From contig JAKQNR010000011.1 of the NCBI GenBank assembly GCA_029565685.1, positions 81,962 through 145,961 of the forward strand: a DNA stretch of 64,000 nt. Reading direction: 5' to 3'. Shown piece after piece: positions 8,774 to 40,470 of the stretch (its first letter is position 1; the number at the start of each line of letters is the position of its first letter). This DNA is from a bacterium. GTDB lineage: Bacteria > Zhuqueibacterota > Zhuqueibacteria > Residuimicrobiales > Residuimicrobiaceae. The notes under the pieces were generated by a model. The model did no database searches and was not told where the DNA came from. It saw only the letters and a list, made by a program, of their open reading frames with translations. The position numbers and the translations under genes were made by a program.

Positions 8774-8789
8774 CGGAGAAAGAAAAAAG

Positions 8790-9596: not shown

Positions 9597-9638
9597 ACGA
9601 AATTTTCGCACTGATTCTCATTTCAAATTCGAGGACCT

Positions 9639-10921: not shown

Positions 10922-10922
10922 A

Positions 10923-11339
10923 ATGAAACGAAGCGCCCTCATTGTCATCTTGTTATGCATCCACTCAATTTGGGGCTGCGAAAGCGGCGGTTCCAGTGAT
11001 TCGGTCGCTCAAGGCAAGAAAGATTCCAGTCAGGTCAAGGTAACTTTTGTCGAATTGGGCTCGGTTAACTGTATTCCCTGCAAAGCGATGCAGCCGGTGA
11101 TGAAAGCGATCGAGGACAAGTACGGCGACCAAATCAAGATCGTTTTTTACGATGTCTGGAAACCGGATCAGAAAAAATACGCCCAGCAATACAAAATTCG
11201 CCTCATCCCTACTCAGATATTCCTCGATGCAAAAGGCCGGGAGATCTTTCGCCATGAAGGCTTTTTCCCTGAAGCGGAAATTGATAAATTGCTGCAATCC
11301 CATGGCCTGAAACCCGTTAAAAAGGAAAACAAGACGTGA
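10923..11339 (+). CDS. Exported thioredoxin-family protein (TlpA/ResA-like), probable lipoprotein
   Basis: The start is ATG 10923, preceded by an AAAGGAG RBS. A signal peptide with lipobox-like IWGC is followed by a thioredoxin fold with the CIPC active site. Confidence 0.65.
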   Translation: MKRSALIVILLCIHSIWGCESGGSSDSVAQGKKDSSQVKVTFVELGSVNCIPCKAMQPVMKAIEDKYGDQIKIVFYDVWKPDQKKYAQQYKIRLIPTQIFLDAKGREIFRHEGFFPEAEIDKLLQSHGLKPVKKENKT

Positions 11340-12043
11340 TCGACAGTCTGTTCAGTTATCTCAGCGGGCTCATGGCGTCCAGTTTTTCTCTGGCCTTGTT
11401 GGCGGCTCTGGTATGGGGGGTAATGAGTATTTTACTCAGCCCCTGCCATCTCTCCAGCATCCCGCTGATCATCGGCTATATCACCAGCCGTGAGAGCAGG
11501 AGCGCGCGGCACTCTTTTGCTCTGGCTTTGGTTTTCGCTTTGGGCATCCTTCTCACCATCGCGCTGGTGGGCATTGTCACTGCCTCTTTGGGCCGGTTGA
11601 TCGGCGATGTGGGCATCTGGGGCAATATCCTCGTCGCTGCTATTTTCATCGTCATGGGACTCTATCTGCTGGATGTGATTTCCCTGAATTGGAACAGTCT
11701 GCCGGCATCCTCCAGTAAATCCGGGTATTGGGGCGCCTTTGGATTGGGTTTGATCTTTGGTATCGGACTCGGTCCTTGCACCTTTGCCTATTTAGCCCCT
11801 GTGCTGGGCATTGTCTTCAGCCTGGCGCAGAGCGGCTGGCTCAAGCCCGTTCTGCTTATTCTTGCTTTTGCGATCGGTCATTGTGCGGTCATCGCACTGG
11901 CCGGCGGATTGGGCCAATGGGTGCAAGACTATTTGAATTGGAGTTCACAATCGCGAGCCGCCGGGCTTGTCAAAAAGATCGCGGGCGTATTGGTATTGTT
12001 GGGCGGAGTCTATTTCATATTTACTGCATTTGTGCAAAGATAG
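11336..12043 (+). CDS. ccdA: CcdA/DsbD-family transmembrane thiol-disulfide electron transporter
   Basis: There are six hydrophobic helices. Conserved cysteines sit in TM1 (LSPCHLSSIP) and TM4 (GLGPCTFAY). The GTG start overlaps the previous stop. Confidence 0.7.
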   Translation: MIDSLFSYLSGLMASSFSLALLAALVWGVMSILLSPCHLSSIPLIIGYITSRESRSARHSFALALVFALGILLTIALVGIVTASLGRLIGDVGIWGNILVAAIFIVMGLYLLDVISLNWNSLPASSSKSGYWGAFGLGLIFGIGLGPCTFAYLAPVLGIVFSLAQSGWLKPVLLILAFAIGHCAVIALAGGLGQWVQDYLNWSSQSRAAGLVKKIAGVLVLLGGVYFIFTAFVQR

Positions 12044-12075
12044 AACAGAATTAAAATAGACGGAGAAAAAAATAG

Positions 12076-12447
12076 ATGGCTGAGACTATGATCGGCATTG
12101 TCGCCTGCTCCGGCGCCTCCAATACCGGACATTATTCCGACATCGTGGCGCGCAAACTGGTAAAATCAGGCAAGGCCAGGATGCTGTGTCTTGCCCGGTT
12201 CGCTGTTGATGAGGATTTCGCCGAGAAATCAAAATTGGAATTTACTGATCTGGTGGTTCTGGATGGCTGTCCCATCAATTGCGCTGAAAAAATACTTCAG
12301 CAACGCGGGATTGCTCAATTTCAGCATATCAATACCACCGATTTCGGCATCATCAAGGGTCAGACGCCCGTCACGGAGCAAAAAGTCGATGAGATAGTCG
12401 AACACATCCGCTCCTCTGCCGCGATCAAAATGTCGCCGGAACAGTGA
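12076..12447 (+). CDS. DGC-domain putative zinc-binding protein
   Basis: It contains the motif VVLDGCPINCAEK and an N-terminal Cys. Small DGC proteins recur in ars islands. The call is made from motif memory only. Confidence 0.45.
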   Translation: MAETMIGIVACSGASNTGHYSDIVARKLVKSGKARMLCLARFAVDEDFAEKSKLEFTDLVVLDGCPINCAEKILQQRGIAQFQHINTTDFGIIKGQTPVTEQKVDEIVEHIRSSAAIKMSPEQ

Positions 12448-12631
12448 GATCTTAATGAAGATAATTCAGCATACGCCTGCTGCAAAATGGACTGGCCTAT
12501 TGCTTTCCACTGTGAAAATTTAAGTAAAAGGCGTAATGAAAGATATTTTAGAATGCAAGATTGCCAATCAGAAATGGCGTGCAACCATTCAACAGTGCAG
12601 CAAAGTAGATGCCGGAGGATAAGATCCTGCC

Positions 12632-13555
12632 ATGGAATCTAGCGATTTAGCCGCAGCCGATGAACACCAAGACCTCGCAAAAAGCCTCGGGGTTTCCATT
12701 CTTCTTAACGCTTTTATTTTTCTTGTAGAGCTTGTCGGCGGAATACTCACTAACAGTCTTGCTCTCATTTCCGACTCTTTCCATAATCTCAGCGATTTTT
12801 TCGCGTTAATATTGAGCTACCTGGCTTCAAAAGTTGTCCGGTGGAAATCAAATTCGGAAAAATCGTATGGCTATGTGCGAGTTGAAATCTTCGTCGCGTT
12901 CATCAACGCCATGGCGCTGATGCTGATCGGGATGTATGTTATTTATGAAGGAATCCGACGGTTTGCACATCCAGAGCCTATCGCAGGCGGTTGGATGCTT
13001 CTCATTGGCGTCATTGGTCTCGTTGTCAATACGGCGGCCACTCTCTTATTAAAGACACACGCGAGCCATGATCTCAATATGAAAAGCGCCTACCTGCATC
13101 TTCTTACCGATGCTCTCGAATCACTCGCGGTTGTCGTCGTTGCAGGATTTATAGCGTGGAAAGATTGGCGTCTGCTCGATCCGCTTATGTCACTGGCCAT
13201 CGGGTTGTTTATCATTAAAAGCGCGTGGAGCATCGTTGCGGAGACGGTCCACCTTCTGACCGAGGGAACCCCACGAGGGATCAATTTGGAGAAAGTAGCA
13301 GCATTTATCCAATCCTTTCCCGGAGTAGAGAATGTGCATCATCTGCATATTTGGGGATTATCGTCTCGAGTGCGGGCCTTAAGCGCTCACATTGTAGTGC
13401 GGGATCAATTGATCAGCAAAACAAATTTAATCAGCACCCAATTGGGAGAAGCGTTGGAACATCGCTTTGGCATTAATCATCCTACGCTTCAGTTTGAATC
13501 TTCGGTCTGTAAAGATCAGGGAGTGATCGTGGATATAAATCATACCGAGCGATAA
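12632..13555 (+). CDS. Cation diffusion facilitator (CDF/CzcD-like) metal efflux transporter
   Basis: There are six N-terminal TM helices with the HxxxD-type motifs FHNLSD and HLLTDA. A C-terminal cytoplasmic domain is present with HHLHIWG. Confidence 0.8.
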   Translation: MESSDLAAADEHQDLAKSLGVSILLNAFIFLVELVGGILTNSLALISDSFHNLSDFFALILSYLASKVVRWKSNSEKSYGYVRVEIFVAFINAMALMLIGMYVIYEGIRRFAHPEPIAGGWMLLIGVIGLVVNTAATLLLKTHASHDLNMKSAYLHLLTDALESLAVVVVAGFIAWKDWRLLDPLMSLAIGLFIIKSAWSIVAETVHLLTEGTPRGINLEKVAAFIQSFPGVENVHHLHIWGLSSRVRALSAHIVVRDQLISKTNLISTQLGEALEHRFGINHPTLQFESSVCKDQGVIVDINHTER

Positions 13556-13601
13556 AACAAGCTCGCTCAAAAAGTATTTTACTAAGGAAAGGGAAATTGC
13601 C

Positions 13602-14213
13602 ATGTTTACCATTCCAGAATGGACGTTTGAATTTCACGGACACCGTTGTCCTTTCATGCCTATCGGTTACAGGATGGGCGCATTGATGCTGAATACTCTT
13701 GAAGTGCCAAGAGCGCAGGATCATGACTATTTCATGTTTGCGGAGCTCGGCGTCGGCCATCCGCAAACTTGCATGATGGATGGGCTTCAGGCATCAACCG
13801 GATGCACCTATGGCAAGTTGATGATCGAACGGCAGAACTTTGGAAAACTTGCCGCGACACTCTGGGCGCCTGCGAAAGGCGGCGTCCGCATCGCCGTCAA
13901 ACCCGAATTTACAGATGCCCTCGGCGGTTATGAATTCTTCACCTTCAGAAAAAAAGGGGTCGAGCCATCGCAAATTCCGGAACCCGTTCGCCTCGAAGTG
14001 ATTCAAAAAGTACTCAGCGCACCAGACGACGAGATGTTCACGGTAAAGCTAATTCCCGACTTAAAACACAAAAAGATTTCCGGTTCGTTCAATAAAGGCA
14101 AGTGCGAAGTGTGCGGCGAATATGTCTTCGAGCGGTATCTTCGTAAAAAAGATGGAAAGCATGTCTGCATTCCTTGTTCCGGCCATGAACCTTCTGTTTA
14201 CGGACAGAAATAG
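13602..14213 (+). CDS. FmdE-family protein (copy 1)
   Basis: The N-terminal HGHRCPFMPIGYRMG motif and the C-terminal C-x2-C...C-x2-C knuckle CEVCGEY...CIPCSG match the FmdE/FwdE-like family. Confidence 0.65.
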   Translation: MFTIPEWTFEFHGHRCPFMPIGYRMGALMLNTLEVPRAQDHDYFMFAELGVGHPQTCMMDGLQASTGCTYGKLMIERQNFGKLAATLWAPAKGGVRIAVKPEFTDALGGYEFFTFRKKGVEPSQIPEPVRLEVIQKVLSAPDDEMFTVKLIPDLKHKKISGSFNKGKCEVCGEYVFERYLRKKDGKHVCIPCSGHEPSVYGQK

Positions 14214-14227
14214 AGGAGCCGGACAAA

Positions 14228-15007
14228 ATGGATATGAATTCAGCGCTTCTGTTGGCGATCTTTTTTTCGTTTCTGATTGCTTTTATATTCTCGATGTTTG
14301 GCCAGGGCGGAGGATCGGTTTACTCCCCATTGCTGATTCTGCTTGGCTACGCGGTGCTGATTTCTACTTCTACCTCTTTGGTGCTGAATCTCATCACATC
14401 GATATCCGCTGGTTATGTTTTTTACAAGAACAAGATGATTGACTTTAAAGCATCGTTCATGTTTGTACCAGGCATCGTTCTTGGCGCCTTCGTTGGAGGA
14501 GCGATATCAAAATATATTAATACCAATGTTTTATTATGGTTGTTCGTGTTTTTCCTGATTTTTCTGGGAGGGCGGATGATCTATGGCTATTGGGAAAAAG
14601 TGAAGGCGGAGGAGAAGCGTCCTAAAAACCTGTCCATGACCAGCTATGTGATTATTGTAATTTTCAGTCTTGGTGTTGGTATCGTTTCCGGCTTGTTAGG
14701 CGTCGGCGGCGGAATTTTGATCGTACCGTTTATGACCTATCTCCTCAAATATCCAACCAAGTTCGCAGCGGGTTCATCGCATCTGATTATATCCTTTTCA
14801 GCACTTGCAGGAATATTAGGTCATGCGACATCTCACCAGCTCGATTATCCCTTGATTGCTGCGACCGGTGTCGCCGTTCTTATAGGAGGAAATCTTGGCG
14901 CAAGATTCAGCCTGAGAGTAAAGCCCATGATGATAAAGCTAGGACTCGGTCTTTTAATGTGGGCGCTGTCCGCTCAGCTCCTGTTAAAACTATTAGGAAG
15001 ACTGTGA
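14228..15007 (+). CDS. TauE/SafE-family membrane transporter
   Basis: A duplicated 4-TM architecture carries Gly-rich motifs (GQGGGSVYSPLL, GVGGGILIVPF). Confidence 0.7.
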   Translation: MDMNSALLLAIFFSFLIAFIFSMFGQGGGSVYSPLLILLGYAVLISTSTSLVLNLITSISAGYVFYKNKMIDFKASFMFVPGIVLGAFVGGAISKYINTNVLLWLFVFFLIFLGGRMIYGYWEKVKAEEKRPKNLSMTSYVIIVIFSLGVGIVSGLLGVGGGILIVPFMTYLLKYPTKFAAGSSHLIISFSALAGILGHATSHQLDYPLIAATGVAVLIGGNLGARFSLRVKPMMIKLGLGLLMWALSAQLLLKLLGRL

Positions 15008-15122
15008 GTAATTGACGGCTTGGAGCCGGCTTGGGAGAGCAATTGAAGCGGTAAAAGATAAGCAGAGGTATACAGCAAGTTAACAAACAATATTCTAATT
15101 AAATAAGTTATGGAGTGCGTTC

Positions 15123-15725
15123 ATGATTGATCCACAAGAATGGTTGGATTTCGGGCAAAAATTTCATGGCCACAAGTGCCCCGCCATGCCCATGGGGTTG
15201 CGTGCGGCAGCTGCAGCCATGAATGCACTTGGCGTGGAAAGAACTGGCGACAGCGCCCTTTTGGCCTTAGTGGACCTTGGCGATGATCATTGCGCCACCT
15301 GCTATGGCGACGGAATTCAAGTGCTAACCGGATGCACTTTGGGCAAAGGAAATATCAAAAAGACCCATAAAGGCAAATGGGCTCTCACCTTGATCGACAA
15401 AAAGTCCAAGCGTGCCGTGCGCGTGACGCCGAAAGCAGAAGCGATGCTGGCTAACAAAGAATCCGCATTTTTCAAAGATTATCGCGAAAAGGGTGTTCCC
15501 CCCACAAAAGTCCCGGATGAGGTCGTGGAGCCTCTGGTTCAGCGGGTGATGAATGCACCGCAAGAGATGATTCTGATCGTCTCGGAAGTGCAACCCTATG
15601 TTCTGGAAGAACCACCCCATAGCTTTAACAGTTTTGTTTGCGAAAGCTGCGGTGAGATGGTGGTTGAAGAATATGCTCGCGTTCGATCCGGCAAAAAAGT
15701 TTGTATCGACTGCGCGCAGAAATAA
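15123..15725 (+). CDS. FmdE-family protein (copy 2)
   Basis: The motifs HGHKCPAMPMGLRAA and C-terminal CESCGEM...CIDCAQK identify it as a paralog of the 13602 gene. Confidence 0.65.
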   Translation: MIDPQEWLDFGQKFHGHKCPAMPMGLRAAAAAMNALGVERTGDSALLALVDLGDDHCATCYGDGIQVLTGCTLGKGNIKKTHKGKWALTLIDKKSKRAVRVTPKAEAMLANKESAFFKDYREKGVPPTKVPDEVVEPLVQRVMNAPQEMILIVSEVQPYVLEEPPHSFNSFVCESCGEMVVEEYARVRSGKKVCIDCAQK

Positions 15726-15726
15726 A

Positions 15727-15763
15727 GTGAAAAGCCGAGGTGAGTGCCTCGGCTTTTCACTTT
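15727..15763 (+). terminator. Rho-independent terminator
   Basis: A perfect 14-bp inverted repeat GTGAAAAGCCGAGG/CCTCGGCTTTTCAC with loop TGAGTG is followed by TTT. It lies directly after the FmdE stop. Confidence 0.6.
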
Positions 15764-16073
15764 CCCGCGCTCTTTTGAGGAGTCTAGATGTGATTGCGAA
15801 TGACTTTTCGGGCTGAATTTCGATCCCCCTTTTAGGCTTGGCGCAAACCGCTGTTTCTTTTCTAGTCTGTTCGGAAACATTCGTTATCGTATCAAAAAAG
15901 CAAAATGATAACGCTAGGAATTCTAGCGACTGCCGGTCCATCGGCACGCTTGATGACGTCATGCTGCTGCAGAGTTATCTTGGGGCTCACCAACTCAATG
16001 GAAGTCCCTTCAGGCAATTCGTTTTACTTCTGTAACACATTTAATATTAATAAAGCTAAGATAGGTATTCCCT

Positions 16074-17276
16074 ATGAAAATTCTCATTCTTTGTACCGGC
16101 AATTCCTGCCGCAGCCAGATGGCAGAGGGCTTGCTGCGGTCGTTTGATCCGGGGCTGGAGGTTTTTTCCGCTGGGACAGAGCCGGCAGCCGTTGTGCATC
16201 CATTGGCGATACAAGTGATGGCGGAGCTGGGCATTGATATCTCCCAGGCAAAGCCCAAACGAGCCGATCAATTTTTGCACGATGATTTTGATTATGTCAT
16301 AACCGTCTGCGATCACGCCAACGAAACCTGTCCGGTATTTCTGGGCCCGGTGCGGCATCGGCTTCATATCGGCTTTGAGGATCCGGCCAAAGTTACAGGC
16401 AGTAACGAGTTCATATTGGACGAGTTCCGCCGCATACGCGATGAAATCCGTGTCAAGTTTGACGACCTTTATCGCCAGCAGATTCGGAAGGAAATGACAA
16501 CGTGCGATAAATCTTTGGGTTTCATCGGCGCCGGCCGTGTGGCTCGAATCCTGCTGGAGGGGTTCAAGCGGGTGAACGGGCCGATGCAAGATATTTTCGT
16601 CAGCGATATCAATCCTAAAGTCATGACCGATCTGCAAAACAAATACCCCTACATCAAAACGACCGATAATCCGGCGGAGGTCGCCCGGCAGGACTATGTG
16701 TTTTTGGCACTGCATCCTCCAGCCATTCCGGCTGGAATGGAGGCAATCAAAAATGGTCTTAAAAAAGAGGCTGTGGTCATCTCGCTGGCGCCCAAAGTCA
16801 CGACTGAACGGTTGACGGCCGGACTGGACGGCTTTAATCGCATCGCCCGCTGGCTTCCTACTGCCGCAACATTTATTGGCAAAGGCTACAATCCTTGTTT
16901 TTATTCCCCCCATCTCTCATCTGCTGAACAGGCATCTCTAACAGCATTATTTTCCAGCGTAGGTGGATGCATAAGGGTCGCGGAAGATAAGATCGAAGCC
17001 TATGCCATGATTATCACCATGGGTCCGACCTATTTCTGGTTTCAGTGGCAACAATTGTTTGAATTGGGTAAAACCTTCGGTTTGTCCGAAGAAGAATTGA
17101 AATCAGGATTGCCGGCCATGCTGAAAGGAGCGATAGAGATATTCTATCATTCCGGGTTGACTCCTGAGCAAGTGAACGATCTCATTCCGGTCCGACCTCT
17201 GGCTGAAGACGAAGCGGCCTTCAAGGCCGCTTATCAAACCAGACTGACCGCCCTGTTTCATAAATTAAAGAAATAG
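16074..17276 (+). CDS. arsC: Fusion of a thioredoxin-coupled arsenate reductase (LMW-PTP family ArsC) with a pyrroline-5-carboxylate-reductase-like NAD(P)-binding domain
   Basis: The N-terminal ~140 aa carry the CX5R P-loop ILILCTGNSCRSQMAEG plus downstream Cys residues, as in Trx-type ArsC. The C-terminal ~260 aa carry the Rossmann motif LGFIGAGRVARILLEGF and align in order with ProC blocks (VVISLAPKVT; NRIARWLPTAATFIGKG; ITMGPTYFWF...). Confidence 0.6.
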   Translation: MKILILCTGNSCRSQMAEGLLRSFDPGLEVFSAGTEPAAVVHPLAIQVMAELGIDISQAKPKRADQFLHDDFDYVITVCDHANETCPVFLGPVRHRLHIGFEDPAKVTGSNEFILDEFRRIRDEIRVKFDDLYRQQIRKEMTTCDKSLGFIGAGRVARILLEGFKRVNGPMQDIFVSDINPKVMTDLQNKYPYIKTTDNPAEVARQDYVFLALHPPAIPAGMEAIKNGLKKEAVVISLAPKVTTERLTAGLDGFNRIARWLPTAATFIGKGYNPCFYSPHLSSAEQASLTALFSSVGGCIRVAEDKIEAYAMIITMGPTYFWFQWQQLFELGKTFGLSEEELKSGLPAMLKGAIEIFYHSGLTPEQVNDLIPVRPLAEDEAAFKAAYQTRLTALFHKLKK

Positions 17277-17331
17277 CGCAAAGGATATCGACACATTTAT
17301 AAAATGTTCAACAACAAAAGAGGAAAGACAA

Positions 17332-17742
17332 GTGGACGACTCCAGGGAATGGCGCTGGTTGAAAGGGGGGATCCTGACCTCTCTGTTATCGGTGGTCACC
17401 TATTTTATTTTTAGTGCGATCACGGAACGCCACGATGCCTTCGGCATTACAGCTGGATTCGGTTGCATGACCGCGGCATTCGGAAAGTTATTCACAGGAC
17501 TCTGCGACAATTCCGCCATCCTGAGATTTGGAAACCAGTTGAACGCCTTTATAGAGTTCTTTACGTTAATAGGATTGATTGTCGTCGGGTTCACGGCCAC
17601 AAAGCTTTCCAAAATGTTTTCTTTGGAATGGAATTCTGCTGCGTGGCAAAAATACCATGGGAATAGTGCTTTCAAAGCAGATAGGCGATCGGATGGGCAA
17701 TCTGCATCCGATCGTCATCACTTTATCCGGAGGGGGCGTTGA
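17332..17742 (+). CDS. Hypothetical small membrane protein
   Basis: There are two or three hydrophobic segments and no recognisable motif. The coding call rests only on the ORF and on spacing before the next gene. Confidence 0.2.
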   Translation: MDDSREWRWLKGGILTSLLSVVTYFIFSAITERHDAFGITAGFGCMTAAFGKLFTGLCDNSAILRFGNQLNAFIEFFTLIGLIVVGFTATKLSKMFSLEWNSAAWQKYHGNSAFKADRRSDGQSASDRHHFIRRGR

Positions 17743-19094
17743 TGCGATTTGTCCGGGCTGACATCTCGTTGCTTGTGTTATCCTTGCTGAACGCGTCCTT
17801 CGCACAAAACAGATCATCGGACTGGTCGGCCGATGGCAGTCTTCGATACCGTTTGGAAAAATATGAGGGTTATAATGCCAGGAATTACGGCGTTCAGGGT
17901 TCTGATGCATTGGGAGGGTTGGATGATGCCGTTCTTTTGCAGCGCCTGATTTTGGGTTTATCGGGACATGTCGGCCATCGGATGATGCTCGCCGTGCATC
18001 TTCAGGACAGCCGGGCTTTCGGCTGGTCTCTTCGCAACAGCCAAGAACCCGAAGCATTCCGCATGGGGGATAAGAGCGGAAAAAATTTTTACATCATGAA
18101 TCCACAGGAAGAGTTTTTTGAATTTCACGATGCCTATTTACAGATCTTAAATCCTTTTCCCCATGCGGTCCTGACGTTCGGCCGGCAAAAAATCTTTTGC
18201 GCAGATTATCGCATTTTCGGACCTGGAGACTGGGGCAACACCGGGCGCTGGACATGGGATGCGCTCCGAATACATTGGCAGCGGAATAATCTCTCTGCGG
18301 ATGCATGGGCCGGAGGCACTAAAACCCACGATCCGCAAAAAATTTCCTTTCCTTTTTTCCAGACAGAGTTTTTCGGCGGCGGCTTTTACGGCTCTTATAA
18401 GATAAAAGCCACCTCGGTTGATCTGTTCGCGGCTGTCAAGAAGCCTGGCAGCGCGGAGTATATAAAAAACCAAAGCTTTGCTCGCTATTGGTCCGGCCTC
18501 CGCCTTGACCATAGTGCGTCGCAGGGCGCCGTATACGAGGTCAGCTATACAAAAGGTTTTGGCGATCAAGCCCACAAGACGATCAACTCGTATGGTCTCT
18601 TTGCCAAGGCCGGTTGGTCGATTGGATCTTTGGCGTGGAGACCCGTAATAAGCGCGCGATATTCATATGCGAGTGGAGACGATCCCCGGACAAAAGCCCT
18701 CGAGAGTTTTGATCCGGTCTACGGCGCCGGCGACAAATATTATGGCTGGATGAATTTAGTCCAATGGAGCAATCTGGACGATCGGGAGATCATGCTGGAA
18801 CTTTTTCCTAATGCGGATGCCCGCATCGAAATTAAGTTTAATCGTTTTTCCGCGCCTCATTACGCGACCCCGGTCAATGGTACTTTGGTGATTCCTTCAG
18901 GCAAAAGTCGGTTGGGGGATGAAATGGATATTTTTGCTCGATATCCTATCTTTAAATCGCTCTATTGCACTCTGGCTTTCGGTTGGTTCATACCCCACGA
19001 AGCCCGGCTTATAAATGGCGGGATTCCAACGCAGGCGCTTTGGGGCGCTTGGCAAATGGAATATCGTTTTAGTCGACGGCTGAACTGTTTTTAG
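17739..19094 (+). CDS. Outer-membrane beta-barrel, alginate-export (AlgE-like) family candidate
   Basis: A signal peptide ending SFAQ is present. The alternating aromatic-rich pattern, the SLRYRLEKYEG motif and the C-terminal Phe suggest a porin of the alginate-export type. Confidence 0.4.
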   Translation: MMRFVRADISLLVLSLLNASFAQNRSSDWSADGSLRYRLEKYEGYNARNYGVQGSDALGGLDDAVLLQRLILGLSGHVGHRMMLAVHLQDSRAFGWSLRNSQEPEAFRMGDKSGKNFYIMNPQEEFFEFHDAYLQILNPFPHAVLTFGRQKIFCADYRIFGPGDWGNTGRWTWDALRIHWQRNNLSADAWAGGTKTHDPQKISFPFFQTEFFGGGFYGSYKIKATSVDLFAAVKKPGSAEYIKNQSFARYWSGLRLDHSASQGAVYEVSYTKGFGDQAHKTINSYGLFAKAGWSIGSLAWRPVISARYSYASGDDPRTKALESFDPVYGAGDKYYGWMNLVQWSNLDDREIMLELFPNADARIEIKFNRFSAPHYATPVNGTLVIPSGKSRLGDEMDIFARYPIFKSLYCTLAFGWFIPHEARLINGGIPTQALWGAWQMEYRFSRRLNCF

Positions 19095-19353
19095 CGAGTC
19101 TGCGGTTCAGAAATGAAGAATTGCTCATCCTACCAAAGGCGGAAATAATATGAAAATTTTCCTAGTGCACAAACCACCGCCTTTCGCGATGGTGCTTGAC
19201 TTGACGCGCCGGTAATTCCTATCGCCGCCAAACGGCGCAGGAATGGCCGAAATCCTTAGGTCCCCCCGCCTGCAGGCCTTTTCCGCCGGTTTCGGGATTA
19301 AATTCGTAGGCACTTATTCCGTATTTACCAGGAACAGTTTTGAAAGGAAATCG

Positions 19354-19692
19354 ATGATTGCCAAAGTAGAGATTAGTGCGGGTGTTTGCGGTTTTAGCAC
19401 AACCGCCAGGGTTGAGAGCGACGATGACCAGTTGGTCGCTTTTCGCATTAAAAGCGATTGCGAAAAAATCAACGCTCTGGCGGCCAGGATCGCTGATTCC
19501 GGGGCTCTCGACGCCTATGCGGAGATTTCCGCACGGGATCAAAGCCGTTTGCTCGCCCTGGCTCAGGAACAATTGTCCGGCTGTTGCGCCGCCTGCGCCG
19601 TACCCATAGGACTGTTCAAAGCCATGCAGGTGGCAGCCGGTCTGGCCTTGCCCAGAGAGGTGGTCATCCGGCTGGAAAAAGAACAGGCGTGA
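19354..19692 (+). CDS. Hypothetical small Cys-rich protein
   Basis: The ATG at 19354 follows AAAGGAAA. The 112-aa product contains CGFS...C...GCCAACAV. No family was recognised. Confidence 0.3.
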   Translation: MIAKVEISAGVCGFSTTARVESDDDQLVAFRIKSDCEKINALAARIADSGALDAYAEISARDQSRLLALAQEQLSGCCAACAVPIGLFKAMQVAAGLALPREVVIRLEKEQA

Positions 19693-19740: not shown

Positions 19741-20073
19741 ATGACTTTACTTTATCTGAATTCCGACCAGATGGGCAGCGGCGATCCCGTGCTGGGTAAA
19801 AAACTGCTGAAAATTTTTTTGGAAAAACTGGCAGCCTCCGACGTTCAGGTGGATCTGGTGGGGTGTGTGAATTCGGGGATTTACCTGACCTCTGAGGGCA
19901 GCGAGGTGTTGGCCAGCCTGAAAAAGCTGGAGGAGAAAGGGGCGCGCATCGCCACCTGCGGCACCTGTCTGGATCATCTTCATCTCAGGGAAAAACTGCA
20001 GATCGGCGAGATCGGCGCCATGGACCAGACGGTGCAGGTCATGGCCATGGCGGACAGGATTATCAGGCCCTGA
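19741..20073 (+). CDS. DsrE/DsrF-like family protein
   Basis: The ATG at 19741 has a perfect AAAGGAG RBS. The 110-aa product has VDLVGCVNSG and ATCGTCLDHL, resembling the DsrE/YchN fold (VCGTSLEARG-type motif). Confidence 0.45.
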   Translation: MTLLYLNSDQMGSGDPVLGKKLLKIFLEKLAASDVQVDLVGCVNSGIYLTSEGSEVLASLKKLEEKGARIATCGTCLDHLHLREKLQIGEIGAMDQTVQVMAMADRIIRP

Positions 20074-20157: not shown

Positions 20158-23013
20158 TTATAATTCCAGAGCCATGATAAATTCCGGCTGCCATTTTTTT
20201 TCGCCCGGCAGATAGGCAAAACGCACGCCCAGCGGCAGTTCCACTGGAAGAGATAGCAGGTGCATATAGGCTGTCAGCTCGATGCCGGCGGCGCGGTAAC
20301 GTATTTTCTTTTCATCGGTCCGCGCCCGCGCATCGTCGTAGAAAAGAGCGGCGGTCAGCTTTTTGACATAGATCAGGCCCAATCCGTTCCAGTCCGGAAA
20401 AGCGAGCGGCAGGGCGTAATCGGCAGACCAGCGGTAAAAGAAATCGTGATAGCGATCGCTATATCCGCGGCACATACGGGACTGGTTTTCAAACCGGTAA
20501 TTTTCCGCTTTTTGTTTCTCAGCCGCCAGCTGCCAGCGCCAGCCGTGCAGACGGTGAAAGCCGGGAAAATAGAGATTCAGCCGCACGGCCGCCAGCTGGG
20601 CGCGATAATCGCTGTGAAAGGGAACGTGGCGATAGAGCACGCGGACGGACTGGCCGAAGCGGGGATAGACCTCATTGATCCATTGGCAGGTGCGGGAGAG
20701 CTGAGCGGAATAGGTGACCGGCGCAAACGCTCCGTTGTTGTGTTCATAGAGCTCTGTGAACTCTTTGTCGGAAATCTGCGCATACTCAGCCGATGCACTG
20801 AGCAGCAGATGGGTCTGATAAACCGAGCGCGTCAGATTCAGCGGCAGGCGCAGTCCCAGAGATAGGCCCTTTTCTTTCCAAGAGTAGAGCTGTGGCCGGT
20901 CCTGAGCATTCCTATAGCTGGAAGTGCGGCCGCCAAACCGTGCGCCGAGATCCACGATGGGGTACCATCCGGCATAGCTGAGCAGGGCGGCGCCGGCATG
21001 GGTTCCTTCGTTCTGATTGTGGGCATAACCTAGTGTCCAGCCCATGGTTCCCAAAAGATTTCGCGACACAAGCTGCGCTGTGATGGTCTCATATGAGTCT
21101 GCAGCGATGGGCAATATCCAACTGTGCGGGCGGATCGCATCTTTCAGTGATCGATATGCTTCTATTTTAAAAGTCGTGTCGTGCAGGGTCGTGCAAAAGT
21201 CCCCACCCGCTTCCTGCAGGACCAGAGGTTCATGATAGTCGAACCGCTGGGGCAAGATTTCACTCCATGCCTTCCACCGCGTCGAGTCCAGTTCCATCTC
21301 TGCGACCTGATATCCTTTTAGATCATAGTCGTTGAAATAGAGCGTTCGGCCGTCCCGAGAGACAGAGGGATTGAAGGCGCCGAATTTTCTTGAAGTAACC
21401 TGCCAGATCTTTTTGCTCCGGCGATGGATTGCATAGATGTTGTCGATGCCGGAATAGTCCCAGTTGAACAGCACATAGTCCTTGTAAAAAGTCGGCAGAC
21501 CGGTGTTCTCTTCTCCGCTGGCTATAAGCTCCTGCCACTGGCCGGTTTCCAAATCGATGAGATCGAGGCTGCGGCCGGTTTGTGTCAGCACGTTCAGCGC
21601 AATCCACCGATTGTCCGCGGACCAGGCCGGAGTCATAAGAAAGGCGTTCTGTGGATGGGACCATCGCCGAATCTCTGCGCCTGTCTCGGCATCCAGGATC
21701 ACCAAATGACACCGGTTCGCCGCTGTGTATTCCACCGCTGCGATGCGCCGGCCGTCTGTGGACAGCGCCGGCGCCATATATTTGCTCTTGTCCGTCAGCC
21801 GCTTTGTCCGGCCGCTGGCGAGGTCATACACTTTAATGGAGGAATAGTCCAAGTACCCCCAGCGCGGATGGGGCCTTTGTTCGGTCCAGACAATCTTGTC
21901 CGCTGCCACGGAAGGGGGATATAGAAAGGGGCTGGCCGGCAAGTGTAAAATTTTTTCATCCCCGTCGAGCGACAGCTGCGTGAGACTGAAGCGATCCGCC
22001 AGACCGTATTTGAGCACCAGGATAGAGCTGTCGGACAGGGGTTTGGGAAACAGATAGTGAGTGAGAAAGCGATCGGAATGATTGATCTGTTTGGCCGCGG
22101 TCAATTCGACATTGGCCAGCTGTTCCTGCCATAACGTTTTCACCTCTTCCATCGTCGCGTTGTAAAGGCCTGTTGCGGTGAGCCCGGTTTTACGTCGCAG
22201 GGACCAGGGGAAACGGTAGGGCAGGAGGGAGAGCGCCATGGTGCTAGCGATGACGTCCGACCAGATGACGGCGCCTTTTTCCCGGCGCAGGCGAGAGACC
22301 AGCAAATAACCGAATGCATACGGATCCGCGGACCAGTCCGAATATGAACCGAAGGTCATCTTGTAATAGGAATGGCGCTTGCCGGAGAGCAGCATGGCGC
22401 GGATGGGCATGGTGAATTCCGGCATGCGGCCGCGTCCTCCACGAGTCAGGGCGGTTTCCATGACCACTGCGTCGCCCTCGAACAGCCAGGCCGGCAGGTT
22501 CATCATCGCGCCCACGGCGTGGCCGAAATCGCCAAAGGAGAAATAGAGCCATTTAGTCATGCCGCGCAACGCCCGGTCAAACTGCACCACATGGCGGTAT
22601 TCGTGGATCGCCAAAAGATGATACCAGGGAACGCAGCCGATCAAGCCCACCTGCGGAGGCGTGTTGAACCATTCGCTCTGCCGCGGCGCCAAGCCCACGA
22701 ATCCGTTGGCTTCGGTGTTCTGGTTATGCAACACCAGCGAGATTTTGCGCGGCCGTGTTTGCAGCGAACGGCCGTCCGCTTCATACAGATGCTCCAGCAG
22801 GTTGGCGACCTGCTGCGCGTCCCTGCTGATCTCCTCCGGGAACACGATTCTGAAATGGGCTGCGTCGATCTGTTTCCAGGCCAATCCCGGCGGATTTTGC
22901 ATGGATTCCAGGCTGAGGCTGATCTGCCCCGAACAGCTCCAGGCGCTGATCAGCAGCGCGACGAGAATGCGAAGGAGGTGATTCCCCATAGTCCGTCCTA
23001 GTAATAATACCAT
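20158..23013 (-). CDS. Secreted multidomain protein with an HExxH zinc-metallopeptidase-like motif and a TolB-type PD40 beta-propeller region
   Basis: A signal peptide MGNHLLRILVALLISAWSCSGQ is present. The motif AIHEYRHVVQFD occurs near residue 140. PD40-like repeats follow (LSTDGRRIAAVEY, WSADNRWIALNV, PSVSRDGRTLYF). The Tyr/Trp-rich C-terminal third is not assigned to a fold. Confidence 0.4.
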   Translation of the reverse strand: MVLLLGRTMGNHLLRILVALLISAWSCSGQISLSLESMQNPPGLAWKQIDAAHFRIVFPEEISRDAQQVANLLEHLYEADGRSLQTRPRKISLVLHNQNTEANGFVGLAPRQSEWFNTPPQVGLIGCVPWYHLLAIHEYRHVVQFDRALRGMTKWLYFSFGDFGHAVGAMMNLPAWLFEGDAVVMETALTRGGRGRMPEFTMPIRAMLLSGKRHSYYKMTFGSYSDWSADPYAFGYLLVSRLRREKGAVIWSDVIASTMALSLLPYRFPWSLRRKTGLTATGLYNATMEEVKTLWQEQLANVELTAAKQINHSDRFLTHYLFPKPLSDSSILVLKYGLADRFSLTQLSLDGDEKILHLPASPFLYPPSVAADKIVWTEQRPHPRWGYLDYSSIKVYDLASGRTKRLTDKSKYMAPALSTDGRRIAAVEYTAANRCHLVILDAETGAEIRRWSHPQNAFLMTPAWSADNRWIALNVLTQTGRSLDLIDLETGQWQELIASGEENTGLPTFYKDYVLFNWDYSGIDNIYAIHRRSKKIWQVTSRKFGAFNPSVSRDGRTLYFNDYDLKGYQVAEMELDSTRWKAWSEILPQRFDYHEPLVLQEAGGDFCTTLHDTTFKIEAYRSLKDAIRPHSWILPIAADSYETITAQLVSRNLLGTMGWTLGYAHNQNEGTHAGAALLSYAGWYPIVDLGARFGGRTSSYRNAQDRPQLYSWKEKGLSLGLRLPLNLTRSVYQTHLLLSASAEYAQISDKEFTELYEHNNGAFAPVTYSAQLSRTCQWINEVYPRFGQSVRVLYRHVPFHSDYRAQLAAVRLNLYFPGFHRLHGWRWQLAAEKQKAENYRFENQSRMCRGYSDRYHDFFYRWSADYALPLAFPDWNGLGLIYVKKLTAALFYDDARARTDEKKIRYRAAGIELTAYMHLLSLPVELPLGVRFAYLPGEKKWQPEFIMALEL

Positions 23014-24791
23014 ATGGATTGGTAATCCGCTCTTTTTTCCCCCCGTTTTTCCAGCTCTTGCAGATAATTCAGGATGGGCACATCCACATCGATGTAGGTT
23101 TGCACCAGGCTGAGATTTTTTTCCCAGGGATGAAACTCGTACACGCGGCTGCCGTTGGGCAGGACGGTCAACAGGGTGTGGTGTTGGCTGGCGCGCACAT
23201 AGTTTTTCCCCAGGCCGGGCACATTGTAGACCGGCTCATCGGTGCGCACCAGGCCGGGCAGCATGCGCGCTTCTTCTTTGACCTCCTGCTGCAGCCGCGC
23301 CATGGGCACGCGGTAATCGCGCGTCTCCTGTTTGCCTTTGGTGTTGAAGGTGTAATAAGAGTCCACGCCGATCAGGCGCAACAGCCGGCGCAGCGCCGCC
23401 AGCTCGAAGCGGCGGCTGTTCTCGATGGTGAACACCGCCTGATTGTAAACCGATAGGCCGGCGCGACGGAATTTTTGCACCGCTTCCTGTGATTCCGGCG
23501 TGATCTCGTACGAGTGCTCAAAGTGGGTGATCACTGCGATCTCACGGCGGCCGGGCTCATAAAAGGCGGCGATGCCTTTTACCAGTTCATCGGTGATCCG
23601 CTGCGGCAGCGCCACCGGTGTTCGAGAACCGATGCGGATGCGTTCTATATGGCGGATAGCGGCCACCTGTTCCAGTAGATCGAGGAAACGGCGGTCCGGC
23701 AGAACCAGCGGATCGCCGCCGGTGATCAGGACCTCCACGATGCCGGGATTGCGCTTGAGCCAGCGGATCGCCTCTTTGATTTTATCCGTTCCGGCGAGCG
23801 CGTGCGGCATCAGCGCATCCTTAATTTCCCAGTTGCGCTGGCAATACACGCAGATTTGGCTGCAGGTATTGTACGGTTTAAAGATGGCGATATGGGGATA
23901 GCGCCGGGTGATGAGATCGACGGGGGAGGTGTCCCTTTCCAGCATAAAATCCAGGCGGTCGTTCTCATCGGATCTGCGTTTGCTCATCTCTTCGACGTAA
24001 TGGGGCGGAGGAATGACCTGGCTGCGGACCGCGTGGTCCAGCCGCCGATGCGATGCACGATCCATTAGCGAGGCGTAATAGGGCGTGATGGCAAAGGGCA
24101 ATCTGTGCCGCTTGGCCTGATCGATAGCGTGTCGCTCGGATGCACTCAACTGGATAAACCGCGCCAGCGTCTCGCTGTCCCGGATCAGATGACGCAGGTG
24201 CCAGCGATAATCCTGCCAATCCGATTCCTCTGCATTCCAGGCGGCGAGCAGGCGGCGGCGGTTGGCCTTGCGACGGGCGATGATCTCTGGTTCCAGACCG
24301 TGCCGGATTCGCTTCATCTTTTGCAGAGACTTGCGCGCCATATCTTCCAAGTGGATGGACCGCGCCTGGGCCGCTTGGCGGTTTTTCAGGTGCGCGTAAG
24401 CGGGCAGGGTGACATCCTTATAGATGCCGCTTCGGCCGATCATGCCGAGCAAAATATGACGTAGGTCTTCGATAAACGCCTCATTTAAATCCGGCGCCAG
24501 TTGATCATATTTTTTATTGGCCAGCAGCCACAGCTGCCGCAAACAGCTGTACCGGGTCAGCGTTTCGCTGCGCATGGAGATGATTTCGCGAAAGGCGTAC
24601 AGCGATTCGATTTGCAGACTCCACTCCAGGCCGCGACGGCGCTCGCCGGCGTGATGCAGGATTCTGGACAGCTCTTCAATATAGGCTAGTATAAAACTTC
24701 GGGCAACCCGAGGGGATGGCGCTTCGGTCAACAGCTGAAAGATGACAGGATTGGCGTTTTTCAGGTGTGCATGCAAGGTTTGATGATTCAT
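22998..24791 (-). CDS. KamA-family (lysine 2,3-aminomutase-like) radical SAM protein, long form
   Basis: The radical-SAM cluster CSQICVYC (CxxxCxxC) lies in RRYPHIAIFKPYNTC..., matching KamA ([22 protein letters not shown]). Further blocks are collinear with KamA: SDWQDYRWHLRHL, AITPYYASLMD, GSRTPVALPQRIT and a GKNY Lys. The start is set at the ATG preceded by AAGGAGG (24791). This leaves a ~190-aa N-terminal extension not found in canonical KamA. Confidence 0.6.
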   Translation of the reverse strand: MNHQTLHAHLKNANPVIFQLLTEAPSPRVARSFILAYIEELSRILHHAGERRRGLEWSLQIESLYAFREIISMRSETLTRYSCLRQLWLLANKKYDQLAPDLNEAFIEDLRHILLGMIGRSGIYKDVTLPAYAHLKNRQAAQARSIHLEDMARKSLQKMKRIRHGLEPEIIARRKANRRRLLAAWNAEESDWQDYRWHLRHLIRDSETLARFIQLSASERHAIDQAKRHRLPFAITPYYASLMDRASHRRLDHAVRSQVIPPPHYVEEMSKRRSDENDRLDFMLERDTSPVDLITRRYPHIAIFKPYNTCSQICVYCQRNWEIKDALMPHALAGTDKIKEAIRWLKRNPGIVEVLITGGDPLVLPDRRFLDLLEQVAAIRHIERIRIGSRTPVALPQRITDELVKGIAAFYEPGRREIAVITHFEHSYEITPESQEAVQKFRRAGLSVYNQAVFTIENSRRFELAALRRLLRLIGVDSYYTFNTKGKQETRDYRVPMARLQQEVKEEARMLPGLVRTDEPVYNVPGLGKNYVRASQHHTLLTVLPNGSRVYEFHPWEKNLSLVQTYIDVDVPILNYLQELEKRGEKRADYQSIWYYY

Positions 24792-24941
24792 GCTCGCCTC
24801 CTTTCCAGGGTGAAAGGTCAACCGCACATCGGTACGATTCTCCTCTATTAACATGCCGGTTTGTTGGGAATTGAACTACAATAAGTAAAAGACGGCAAAA
24901 ATGCAAGGAATTTGCGGACGATCGAGTTGGGAATAAAAAAG

Positions 24942-25033
24942 CGGGAATGTGTGGGAATCGAACCCACCCGAGACGGAACCGCCTCACAACGGATTTGAAG
25001 TCCGCGGGCGCCACCAGGCTACCGTGCATTCCC
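24942..25033 (-). tRNA. selC: tRNA-Sec (selenocysteine tRNA, anticodon UCA)
   Basis: The minus-strand sequence is GGGAATGCACGGTAGCC...CGCGGACTTCAAATCCGTTG...GGTGGGTTCGATTCCCACACATTCCCG. Its anticodon loop CUUCAAA is identical in context to E. coli selC (GGACTTCAAATCC). The long variable arm, the T-arm GGTTCGATTCC, the ~92-nt length and the G discriminator all fit tRNA-Sec. Confidence 0.75.
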
Positions 25034-25204
25034 GATGGATTAATATACAAAACAAGGGTGCGGATGTCAAGCGGATAGTTACGTTATGAAACCGGCAGTT
25101 CTTCGGTCGAGCGTCTGCGTTTGTCCGTTTGATGAAAGGTCTGTAAAAGCAACCGCGTTGCCGTCCGACACGCCGATTCAATCGATCCGGAAACGCCGAT
25201 CCGT

Positions 25205-25546
25205 CTATTTTTCAGGGGAGCGGTAAATTCTAATCTTGACTTTTTCCACCGTAACCAGCCCTTCCTTAAGAAACCAGCTGATGAATTTCAAAAAATGTTC
25301 GATCTTGTCCATTGTATCGACGATCTCGATGACGATCGGCAGATCCTCGGATAACCGTTCTATTTTAAAAGAATGAATGGTCCGGGTCTTGGGACCAAAT
25401 CCCATGATCCCCCGCATCACCGTAGCGCCCGCCATGTCCAAATCTCGCGCCTGCATCACGATCCATTCGTACAAGGGGCGGTGCTGGTACCTGTCCAATT
25501 CGCCCATGAAAATTCGCAGCAGATATCCATCCGAAGGCGTCAGCAT
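25205..25546 (-). CDS. DUF190 protein (PII-like, CrcB-associated)
   Basis: A 113-aa protein sits immediately downstream of crcB in the same orientation. This pairing is recurrent. Confidence 0.65.
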   Translation of the reverse strand: MLTPSDGYLLRIFMGELDRYQHRPLYEWIVMQARDLDMAGATVMRGIMGFGPKTRTIHSFKIERLSEDLPIVIEIVDTMDKIEHFLKFISWFLKEGLVTVEKVKIRIYRSPEK

Positions 25547-25549: not shown

Positions 25550-25933
25550 TCACCTCCACGATTTATAAGCGATCAGGCGACCCAACCACAGGGCCATCAT
25601 GCCTAGAACAATATGGAGAAGAATGTTGAGAAAGGTCATGAACGCCTCCTTATCCATAGCCAGGTGCATGCTTTCATTCATAAAGGTTGAAAAAGTGGTG
25701 AATCCCCCCAGCATGCCGATAAAAACGAACGGACGCTGGGCTCCGGGTAAAAGTCCGTAATTCTCAGAAAGATAGGACAAGAAACCCACGGCAAAACAGC
25801 CGCTGAGGTTGACGAACAAAGTCCCATAGGGAAAGGAGGCATCTCTCATGCCCTGTTGTATCAATCCGCTCAGGATATAGCGCAGGATCGTGCCGATAAA
25901 ACCACCTATGCCGATCAAAAAAATGTTATACAC
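25550..25933 (-). CDS. crcB: Fluoride ion channel CrcB/Fluc
   Basis: The motifs GTLFVNLSGCFAVGF and GFTTFSTF are hallmarks of Fluc. The protein is 127 aa with four TM helices and a GTG start. Confidence 0.85.
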   Translation of the reverse strand: MYNIFLIGIGGFIGTILRYILSGLIQQGMRDASFPYGTLFVNLSGCFAVGFLSYLSENYGLLPGAQRPFVFIGMLGGFTTFSTFMNESMHLAMDKEAFMTFLNILLHIVLGMMALWLGRLIAYKSWR

Positions 25934-25995: not shown

Positions 25996-26088
25996 AATAA
26001 AAAAACTCCTGCTCATTCCACAGGGCCATGTGAAAAAGCAGGAGTTATCAGCGTAAACGCGGTTAAGGCGAACTCCATCGCCGCTACA
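25996..26088 (-). promoter_or_regulatory. Fluoride riboswitch (crcB motif RNA) with intrinsic terminator expression platform
   Basis: The minus-strand RNA is GCGGCGAUGGAGUUCGCCUUAACCGCGUUUACGCUGAUAACUCCUGC, matching the fluoride aptamer consensus (GGCGAUGGnGUUCGCC...AAACGC...GCUnAUnACUCCUnC). It is followed by the hairpin AACUCCUGCU...AGCAGGAGUU plus U7. A TATAAT box at 26098-26103 (minus strand) lies about 7 nt upstream of the aptamer. The element is ~70 nt upstream of the crcB start. Confidence 0.75.
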
Positions 26089-26246
26089 AAGTACGTAATT
26101 ATATCAAAAAAAGCAAGCGGTTCACGAGCGAATTTTCAGCTGAGAACCTTGTAACTTCCGCTTCAAGCGATGTTCTCTGCCGGTCCATTTGATGGCGTTG
26201 AGGAGGCGATGCGGGATTTGAAAGGATGGATGGAAACAAAAAAGTC

Positions 26247-33419: not shown

Positions 33420-33538
33420 GGCAGGAAAAGGATAGATGGAGCTCTTATTGAATGGCCGTTATGCTGTTGCCGGATGTTGAGTTTGTTTTAATTTGCACTC
33501 AAGCGACCATTGCTCTTTTTATTAAAAAGGAGAGAACC

Positions 33539-36500
33539 ATGAAACTCTACAGATTGAAAGCGCTGGCGCTGTTTGTGCTGGCCTTTCAGGCTATGGCGTT
33601 CGCAGGCACTACCGGGCACTTTACCTGGTACGACACGGACAACAATATGACGATCGCCATGACCACCAGCACGAACAAAACGCTGGGCGGCGCCCCTCTG
33701 CAGAACGGCGATGAGGTCGGCTTTTTCAATGGCAGCGGCGTATGCGTCGGCGGACTGGTTTGGAACGGCTCCAATACAGCCGGACCTGCCATGGGAGTTG
33801 ATGATTTTGGCAATCCCGGTTTGACCGCCGGTGAAGTCGTTCAGTACCGGCTGTATCGTCCCAGTCTGAATAGAGAGTTTACATCGGTAAGCGTCTCTTA
33901 TTTAAGCGGCACCGGAGCGTATGTACCCGGCGCGACGCGTATTTTGAGCGTGTTCAACGCCTCTGCCTACACTCTGACCATGGCCGTCAGCCCCAGCGGC
34001 AGCGGAACCACTACACCAGCGGTCGGGTCTTACCTATATAATCCCAACCAAGTCGTTAACGTTACAGCTACGGCGAGCGGCGGCAACTCTTTTCTTAATT
34101 GGACCGGCGATGTGGCTGACGTGAATGATCCCACTACAACGGTCACGATGAACAGCGACAAAACAGTAACCGCCAATTTTGGCACTCCGCAATATACACT
34201 GACCATGGCGGTGAGTCCGGGCGGCAGCGGAACGACGACGCCGGCAGTGGGTGGACACAGTTATGCATCCGGCGAATCAGTGCCGATCACCGCCACTGCA
34301 GCCACGGGATATCATTTTGTCAATTGGACGGTGAGCGGCGGCGCAGCGGTGGCCAATCCGACCAGCGCCTCGACCACGGTGAGCGTGGATCAGAACAAGA
34401 CGGTGACCGCGAATTTTGAACAGAACACCTATAGCCTGACGATCAATACCGTGGGATCCGGAAGCGTGACCAAAGATCCGGACCAAACCAGCTATGCCCA
34501 CGGCGCCGTGGTGACGTTGACGGCAAATCCGGCAGCGGGCTGGACTTTTAGCGGCTGGAGCGGCGCGTTGACCGGTTCTACGAATCCCACCACCATCACC
34601 ATGGATGCGGCCAAAAGCGTGACCGCGACGTTTACCCAGATCACGTACACCCTGACAATGGCAGTGAGTCCGGCAGGAGGGGGTACAACGACACCTTCCA
34701 TCGGCGCGCACACTTATAATTCAGGTACGGTTGTCACCGTCACTGCCTCACCGGCCTCAGGATATCAGTTTGTGAATTGGACCGGAAACGTTGCCAATCC
34801 AAACAGCGCAACGACAACGGTTACGATGAACAGCAGCAAGACCGTGACAGCCAATTTCAGCCAAACTACCTACACGTTGACCGCCGGCAACGACGGCCAT
34901 GGAACTGTTACCTTGACTCCTCCTGGCGGCACCTACGCGGCCGGGACCACGGTGACCTTGACCCCTGTACCGAACAGCGGATATCTGTTCAGCTCCTGGA
35001 CCGGGACCAATGACGGGGATGTGATCAACACGGGCGGTGTATATACCATAGTGATGAATGGCAACAAATCCGTCACTGCTCTTTTCACGCAGATCACTTA
35101 TACTTTAACCGCGGGCAATGACGGCCATGGCACAGTATCGTTGAGTCCGTCCGGTGGTGTCTATGCGGCCGGGACCACGGTGACGTTGACGCCTGTGCCT
35201 GCTTCAGGTTATACCTTTAGTTCCTGGACCGGGACAAATGTCGGAGATATCATCAACACCGGCGGAGTGTACACGATCGTTATGAATGGAAACAAGACAG
35301 TGCAGGCGAATTTTATTCTAACGACCTACACATTGACCGCGGGCAATGACGGCCATGGCACAGTATCGTTGAGTCCGTCCGGTGGTGTCTATGCGGCCGG
35401 GACCACGGTAACGCTGACGCCGAATCCGAGTTCAGGATACTCATTCAGCACCTGGTCCGGACCCAACGCCGGGGATATCACCTACAGCGGCGGTGTTTTT
35501 CGCATTGTCATGAACAGCGATAAAGCGGTGACCGCCAATTTCACCCAGATCACCTACACTCTGACCGCGGGCAACGATGGCCATGGCACGGTGACGCTCA
35601 GTCCATCAGGCGGCGTCTATGCAGCCGGGACTACAGTGACGCTGACGCCGAATCCGAATTCCGGATATACGTTCAGCTCCTGGTCCGGAACCAACGCCGG
35701 GGATGTCACCTACAGTGGTGGCGTCTATCGCATTGTCATGAACGGCAATAAATCGGTGACTGCCAATTTCACCCAGATCACCTACACATTGACCGCGGGC
35801 AACGACGGCCATGGCACGGTGACGCTCAGTCCATCAGGCGGCGTCTATGCGGCCGGGACCACAGTGATGTTGACGCCGAATCCGGGTCCTGGATACGCCT
35901 TCAGTTCCTGGACCGGCGCCAATGCGGCTGACGTGGTGAACACCGGTGGAGTGTACACCATCGTCATGAACGGCAACAAAGCAGTAATTGCCAATTTTAC
36001 CCAGATCACCTATACTCTGACTGCCGGCAACGACGGTCATGGCACGGTGACGTTGAGTCCGTCCGGCGGTGTCTATGCGGCCGGGGCCACGGTGACGTTG
36101 ACGCCGAATCCGGCTTCCGGTTATACCTTCAGTCACTGGACCGGCGCCAATGCATCAGACGTGGTGAATAACGGCGGCGTGTTCACACTTTTCATGAACA
36201 GCAACAAAGCGGTGACCGCCAATTTCATCCAGATCACCTACGCTCTGACCGCCGGCAACGACGGTCATGGCACGGTGACTTTGAATCCGGCCGGTGGGAT
36301 CTATCCGATAGGTACAACGGTTACTTTAACGCCGTCGCCAAGTTCAGGGTATACCTTCACTTCTTGGAGCGGCGCGGATTCCGCTTTTGTGATCAACACC
36401 AACGGCGTGTACACCATCGTGATGAACGCCAACAAAACCGTACAGGCCAATTTTAGTCAGATTCAATATTTGTTGACGATGGCGGTGAGTCCGGAGGGAT

Positions 36501-40455: not shown

Positions 40456-40470
40456 CACGGAGTCCATACG

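Follow-up and report, generated by a model that had tools for sequence, protein, structure and literature searches.

The window, that is, the whole 64-kb stretch of DNA analyzed here, contains a single tRNA gene. ARAGORN placed it on the minus strand, at 24941-25033, and called it tRNA-SeC (anticodon tca). The same stretch gave a full-length match to the Rfam tRNA-Sec model RF01852 (model positions 1-91; 24943-25033, minus strand), scoring 71.5 bits (gathering score, 47 bits) with an E value of 1.2e-12, and tRNA-Sec was chosen for the locus in the Rfam clan competition. The mature RNA spans 25033 to 24942, a length of 92 nt with the G73 discriminator counted, and CCA is absent from the gene sequence. 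The features at the selC locus are as follows, in the direction of transcription.

25042..25070, minus strand: sigma-70-type promoter (TTGACA, 17-nt spacer, TATATT), from a consensus scan
24942..25033, minus strand: selC, tRNA-Sec(UCA), from ARAGORN and Rfam RF01852, with a cloverleaf and covariation in 31 clade sequences
24935..24940, minus strand: run of six T residues, 2 nt past the discriminator, read from the sequence

A preliminary description of this DNA had proposed a tRNA-Sec with a UCA anticodon at 24942-25033, about 92 nt in length, with an anticodon loop, CUUCAAA, identical to that of Escherichia coli selC and a long variable arm. These points were borne out by the analysis. ARAGORN, a tRNA caller of the kind that the description had named as a check, returned SeC with anticodon tca and no other isotype, in agreement with RF01852, and the mature RNA occupies exactly the proposed span. 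The UCA anticodon lies in the 7-nt loop CUUCAAA, and the identity with the annotated E. coli K-12 selC extends to the whole anticodon arm, GGACUUCAAAUCC. The strand, which had been left out of the description, is the minus strand. A blastn search of the window tRNA against E. coli genomes gave no match, the query being short and divergent.

Eleven of the 12 promoter positions agree with the consensus, the -10 hexamer ends 8 nt before tRNA position 1, and a TTGAC..TAT.TT stretch is kept upstream of selC in related contigs. This near-consensus match together with its conservation suggests that the promoter is functional. The six-T run on the 3' side may mark a stop of transcription or a region for processing, judging by its composition and position; the terminator scan made no call at 24935..24940.

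Structure of the tRNA

Bacterial tRNA-Sec is defined by a 13-bp acceptor/T branch in 8/5 arrangement, a 6-bp D-stem with a 4-nt loop, a long variable arm, and G73; SelA reads the D-stem and its loop, and SerRS reads G73 (PMC7609411). The window gene shows this set of features except for Watson-Crick pairing at layer 8 of the acceptor. The MFE and ARAGORN folds concurred over most of the cloverleaf, with seven Watson-Crick pairs in the acceptor, a T-arm made up of a 5-bp stem (GUGGG/CCCAC) and the loop UUCGAUU, and a variable arm with a 7-bp stem and a 4-nt loop; the long variable arm of the preliminary description and the G73 discriminator are both as expected of a bacterial tRNA-Sec. Compared with shuffled sequences, the MFE fold had a z value of -1.57, a gain in stability that is not significant, and the fold energy alone therefore lends the gene no support.

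Two irregularities were flagged by Rfam, at acceptor layer 8 and in the length of the D-arm. At layer 8, C8 is opposed to A84 and does not form a Watson-Crick pair. The branch is thus composed of 8 nt on each acceptor strand and the 5-bp T-stem with no linker between them, and given the C8/A84 mismatch, it contains 12 standard pairs; bacterial tRNA-Sec with just 12 branch pairs has already been published (PMC5389517). The D-arm is 17 nt long, compared with 16 nt in E. coli selC. Three registers were tried, and only with A14 bulged did all six positions pair (11:27, 12:26, 13:25, 15:24, 16:23, and 17:22), leaving the loop UGGU. The 6-bp D-stem and 4-nt loop by which SelA recognizes the tRNA are therefore present, with one bulge.

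Comparison with E. coli K-12 selC (b3658) gave 63 identical positions out of 92. Both tRNAs carry UCA in the same anticodon arm and have G73, a long variable arm, a 5-bp T-stem, 8 nt in each acceptor strand, and a length of 92 nt without CCA. They differ in the eighth acceptor pair, which is C:G in E. coli and C/A in the window gene; in the D-arm, which in E. coli is composed of 6 bp and a 4-nt loop without the bulge found here; and in CCA, which is encoded by the E. coli gene and not by that of the window.

Conservation and covariation in related sequences

Metagenome contigs were scanned with a more specific pattern, yielding 32 selC loci (L128-L159). At least 15 metagenome contigs were found to share the 5' half of the window gene, including C8, together with A84, while varying only in the loop of the variable arm and having unrelated flanks. 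Since the C8/A84 combination recurs in at least 15 contigs with different flanks, it is not an assembly error, and the gene is under selection. The C/A opposition at layer 8 is, on the evidence of these contigs, a conserved trait of the subgroup.

A clade alignment was built from 31 distinct tRNA-Sec sequences. The cloverleaf paired 93.4% of its cells, compared with 33 to 54% in controls with slid partners. Changes on both sides were found for 15 pairs, including all 7 of the variable arm and 4 of the 6 in the D-stem, and the covariation exceeded that of all 500 shuffles. The T-stem was 5 bp in 31/31 sequences. At column 8:89, a standard pair was present in none of the 31; A84 was invariant, and position 8 was C, G, or A.

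Among the matches listed, the window tRNA was nearest to those of MAGs labeled Latescibacterota, KSB1, and “Cytophagia.” The tRNA-Sec of Latescibacterota, KSB1, and related uncultured bacteria (L007, L015, L081, L085, and L128-L159) has the same layout as that of the window, including the GGGAAUG acceptor, the invariant A84 facing a nonpairing position 8, the 17-nt D-arm with its UGGU loop, and identical anticodon and T-arms. The nearest relatives differ from the window gene at 2 of the 92 positions. Position 8 is G in most of the wider clade, giving G/A at layer 8, whereas the window subgroup has C8 and thus C/A. The genes flanking selC in these relatives are unrelated to those in the window.

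Layer 8 and the D-arm among bacterial tRNA-Sec genes

When one genome per species was scanned with a pattern, at least 120 selC loci (L003-L122) were found, from which 105 unique tRNA-Sec sequences were extracted, a sample biased by the search pattern. Layer 8 in these 105 listed sequences was C:G in 39, G/G in 26, G/A in 17, and C/A in 6, with other combinations in the rest. A standard eighth pair was therefore lacking in approximately half of them, including taxa with adjacent selA/selB. G73, as found in the window gene, was present in 102 of the 105. The 17-nt bulged D-arm occurred in 66 of the 83 unique 5' halves listed, and the canonical arm of 6 bp and 4 nt in the other 17. Among the tRNA-Sec matches listed, the outer three pairs of the 17-nt D-arm covaried strongly, and the site of the bulge differed by lineage, being at position 14, 15, or 16.

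Genomic context of selC

The features identified around selC are listed below.

19741..20073, plus strand: YedF-type DsrE-like protein, 110 aa (TIGR03527, 114.5 bits; cut-off, 110)
22998..24854, minus strand: KamA-family radical SAM protein, 618 aa (TIGR00238, 304.6 bits; cut-off, 199.2)
25205-25546, minus strand: DUF190 protein (Pfam, 120.2 bits)
25550-25933, minus strand: crcB (Pfam CRCB, 95.4 bits; TIGR00494, 93.4 bits)
26032..26091, minus strand: fluoride riboswitch (Rfam RF01734, 55.6 bits; threshold, 34)

The KamA-family gene starts 87 nt downstream of selC, and a gene for a PD40/Tricorn-like protein also lies downstream. The KamA-family protein scored below the cut-offs of all curated equivalogs, namely, lysine, glutamate, and arginine 2,3-aminomutase and EpmB, and has an N-terminal extension of about 200 aa without a family match. 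Directly upstream of selC is a crcB-DUF190 fluoride-efflux operon led by the fluoride riboswitch, and a hairpin at 26024-26008 that resembles a terminator is consistent with the expression platform of this riboswitch. Of the two neighbors named in the preliminary description, the long-form KamA enzyme was confirmed by the TIGR00238 match and its extension; crcB is also present, but the nearest upstream gene is that for DUF190. Apart from a shared C-terminal sorting domain, no synteny of selC with KamA, crcB, or PD40 genes was found in the at least 120 genome loci and 32 metagenome loci.

The YedF-type gene, located 5 kb from selC, encodes the sole member of a selenium-associated family in the window. 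YedF has been reported to co-occur strongly with SelD, and its orthologs are recognized by the combination of a SirA-like domain (CPXP) at the N terminus and a DsrE-like domain (CGXC) at the C terminus (PMC5322559). The 19741-20073 protein aligned to positions 87-194 of the 194 in the TIGR03527 profile, corresponding to the C-terminal half of YedF, and contains a CGTC motif; a SirA-like domain is absent. By its domain content, the protein is a YedF-domain homologue rather than a full YedF. As a DsrE-like protein without the SirA-like domain, it hints at most at redox chemistry of selenium or sulfur. The gene is preceded by one for a DUF6951 protein (19243-19692, plus strand, 149 aa) with a CCAAC motif, and DUF6951 may substitute for the SirA-like domain missing from its YedF-type neighbor.

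Elsewhere in the window, the product of a plus-strand gene at 33452-38194 is 1580 aa long, has 13 InlB-type B-repeat (Flg_new_2) domains, and carries a FlgD_ig tail at its C terminus. Window position 34308, which falls within this repeat gene, is where each of two independent JGI assemblies breaks. Also on the plus strand, positions 39503-48014 hold a complete Tad/Flp pilus cluster, with genes for a prepilin peptidase, TadE, RcpC, a secretin, a TadG-like protein, a CpaE-like ATPase, CpaF, and two TadB/C proteins.

Search for sel genes and selenoproteins

Neither Pfam and NCBIfam searches of about 50 ORFs nor tblastn searches with the E. coli proteins identified SelA, SelB, or SelD in the window. 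Several anaerobic-digester metagenomes (JGI 3300009780 and 3300010355, SRR5007225, and ERZ27257428) contain contigs that match the window with 100% identity and add 6.25 kb on the left and 8.2 kb on the right, for a total of about 78 kb. The added flanks contain sugar-metabolism and GFO/IDH/MocA oxidoreductase genes; no sel genes were present in either flank, and no selenoprotein gene was seen in the window and flanks together. The preliminary description, which had reported no sel genes, was therefore right for selA, selB, and selD, while the YedF-type DsrE-like gene at 19741-20073 had escaped it. With respect to linkage, an unlinked selC was the usual arrangement: a sel gene was located near selC, within the DNA covered at each locus, in just 5 of about 150 loci listed (L018, L107, L043, L100, and L118), and in E. 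coli, selC, selAB, and selD occupy three separate sites. As approximately 97% of the listed selC loci also lack linked sel genes, their absence here is uninformative.

To search for interrupted selenoprotein genes, all six frames were scanned for TGA codons flanked on both sides by 25 or more open codons, and a codon model derived from the window genes was used to score those candidates that did not fall within well-supported genes. Every candidate segment in the 64-kb window scored negative, compared with at least 0.095 for known genes, so the earlier statement that no ORF pair in the window resembled a TGA-interrupted selenoprotein was upheld. The TGA at 19690-19692, which lies between the DUF6951 and DsrE-like ORFs in the same frame, was considered as a Sec codon joining the two and rejected, as it had been in the preliminary description. 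It is a true stop, since an AT-rich spacer and then an AAAGGAG Shine-Dalgarno sequence lie between it and the ATG at 19741, and a separate gene caller also divides the two genes.

selC as a junction in related contigs

An arsenic/metal resistance cluster of lower GC content (0.47 to 0.51) is located at 4414-19094 on the plus strand, with the YedF-type gene at its edge. It contains genes for ArsR, an 821-aa multiheme cytochrome, an ArsP permease, an ArsM-like methyltransferase, Acr3, two thioredoxin-like proteins, DsbD, a DGC-domain protein, a CDF transporter, two FmdE/zinc-finger proteins, TauE, an ArsC(LMWP)-ProC-like fusion, and an alginate-export-like porin. Integration of a low-GC island spanning 4.4-20 kb at the 3' side of selC was considered and is unsupported: no second copy of the 5' or 3' part of selC was found elsewhere in the window, and no integrase was found there by Pfam scans.

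In relatives, partial copies of selC were observed in three contigs (L133:4123-4196, L136:3899-3972, and L141:4351-4430). Each consists of a promoter-like stretch and tRNA positions 1 to approximately 37 to 44 and lies 1.2 to 4.3 kb upstream of the full gene. In two other contigs (L146:1397-1478 and L152:7723-7804), the native promoter and the 5' half of selC lead directly into unrelated DNA, which in L152 encodes a GajB-like UvrD helicase, a ThsB-like TIR protein, and a fragment of an HmaC-like ATPase; an integrase was not recognized in the L152 junction DNA. The L146 and L152 junctions inside the selC 5' half look like defense-island junctions.

DISCUSSION

The selC gene of the window is real, intact, and conserved, its structure is supported by covariation, and it has a strong promoter-like site; the finding is correct but ordinary. 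The preliminary description took the gene to mark the organism as a selenoprotein user, which is reasonable. As no SelA, SelB, SelD, or selenoprotein gene is present in the window and flanks, we infer rather than observe the use of Sec by the organism; by analogy with known systems, the tRNA is probably expressed, charged, and used for Sec. The locus is very probably a working selC in a Sec-using organism. In such an organism, selC would be transcribed as a stand-alone unit from its own sigma-70 promoter, standing apart from the other sel genes as E. coli selC does from selAB and selD. The tRNA-Sec would be serylated by SerRS, and SelA, recognizing the long D-stem and 4-nt loop, would convert the charged tRNA to Sec-tRNA-Sec, which SelB would then bring to those UGA codons that have a SECIS hairpin after them. 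As in E. coli, the sel and selenoprotein genes would lie at other sites in the genome. Layer 8 is a conserved non-Watson-Crick C/A opposition within an 8+5 register like that of many other bacterial tRNA-Sec species.

Three other explanations were weighed. The gene might be an orphan or relic, for instance, the landing site of a mobile island, in a genome that has lost SelA, SelB, SelD, and its selenoproteins. The 78 kb without a sel or selenoprotein gene would fit such a history, as would the use of selC as a junction for foreign DNA in relatives. The first of these observations carries little information, however, given how few of the listed selC loci have linked sel genes, and a relic would not be expected to be intact and well over the Rfam threshold, to retain a near-consensus promoter, or to be conserved in many related contigs with compensatory changes and with variation restricted to a loop. 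We consider loss of the Sec machinery improbable. A chance match or a pseudogene, in whose favor nothing can be cited except the unremarkable fold energy, is barely conceivable in view of the full-length model match, its E value, and the conservation of the gene across contigs.

The irregular acceptor bears on a further reading, in which the RNA is a tRNA-Sec look-alike acting as a plain opal suppressor, either an allo-tRNA-like serine tRNA or a selC*-type cysteine tRNA, delivered by EF-Tu. Just seven acceptor pairs are Watson-Crick, layer 8 is never standard in the clade, and the choice between SelB and EF-Tu was reported to depend on acceptor length (Baron and Bock 1991, as listed in PMC4607533). 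UCA-anticodon mimics of tRNA-Sec do exist (PMC5389517), and like the window tRNA, allo-tRNAs and selC* have fewer than 13 Watson-Crick branch pairs, a long variable arm, and a long D-stem. The resemblance does not extend to the branch itself: the tRNA-Sec-like species have 8/4 or 9/3 branches, some of them bulged at 51a (PMC5389517), and the T-stem of 4 or 3 bp in a 12-bp branch that characterizes allo-tRNAs is at odds with the invariant 5-bp T-stem found here. Similarly, selC* tRNA-Cys has U73 as its discriminator for CysRS identity (PMC5389517), whereas the window gene has G73, and its pairing shortfall is due to the layer-8 mismatch. Both acceptor strands keep 8 nucleotides, so the length of the acceptor helix is preserved. 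Nonstandard eighth pairs were also seen in about half of the 105 listed tRNA-Sec sequences, some with adjacent selA/selB, and the Rfam clan competition favored tRNA-Sec. A suppressor of this kind is thus very unlikely, and the locus is best read as a functional selC.

The mismatch at layer 8 could itself be a selected recognition feature, serving a lineage-specific SelB or the exclusion of EF-Tu, rather than tolerated noise. This is unlikely, but if true, it would modify the “13-bp rule” for bacterial tRNA-Sec. The survey of layer 8 and the D-arm is of modest interest for tRNA-Sec identity rules, but tRNA-Sec with fewer than 13 pairs has already been published. The one mildly unusual feature of the gene is its conserved nonstandard layer 8, and such layers are widespread among the sequences sampled. 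The family is thoroughly known, and the importance of the gene extends little past annotation. For the organism, an uncultured bacterium of anaerobic digesters, selC is the mark of a probable selenocysteine user, and UGA codons elsewhere in its genome therefore need to be checked before they are called stops.
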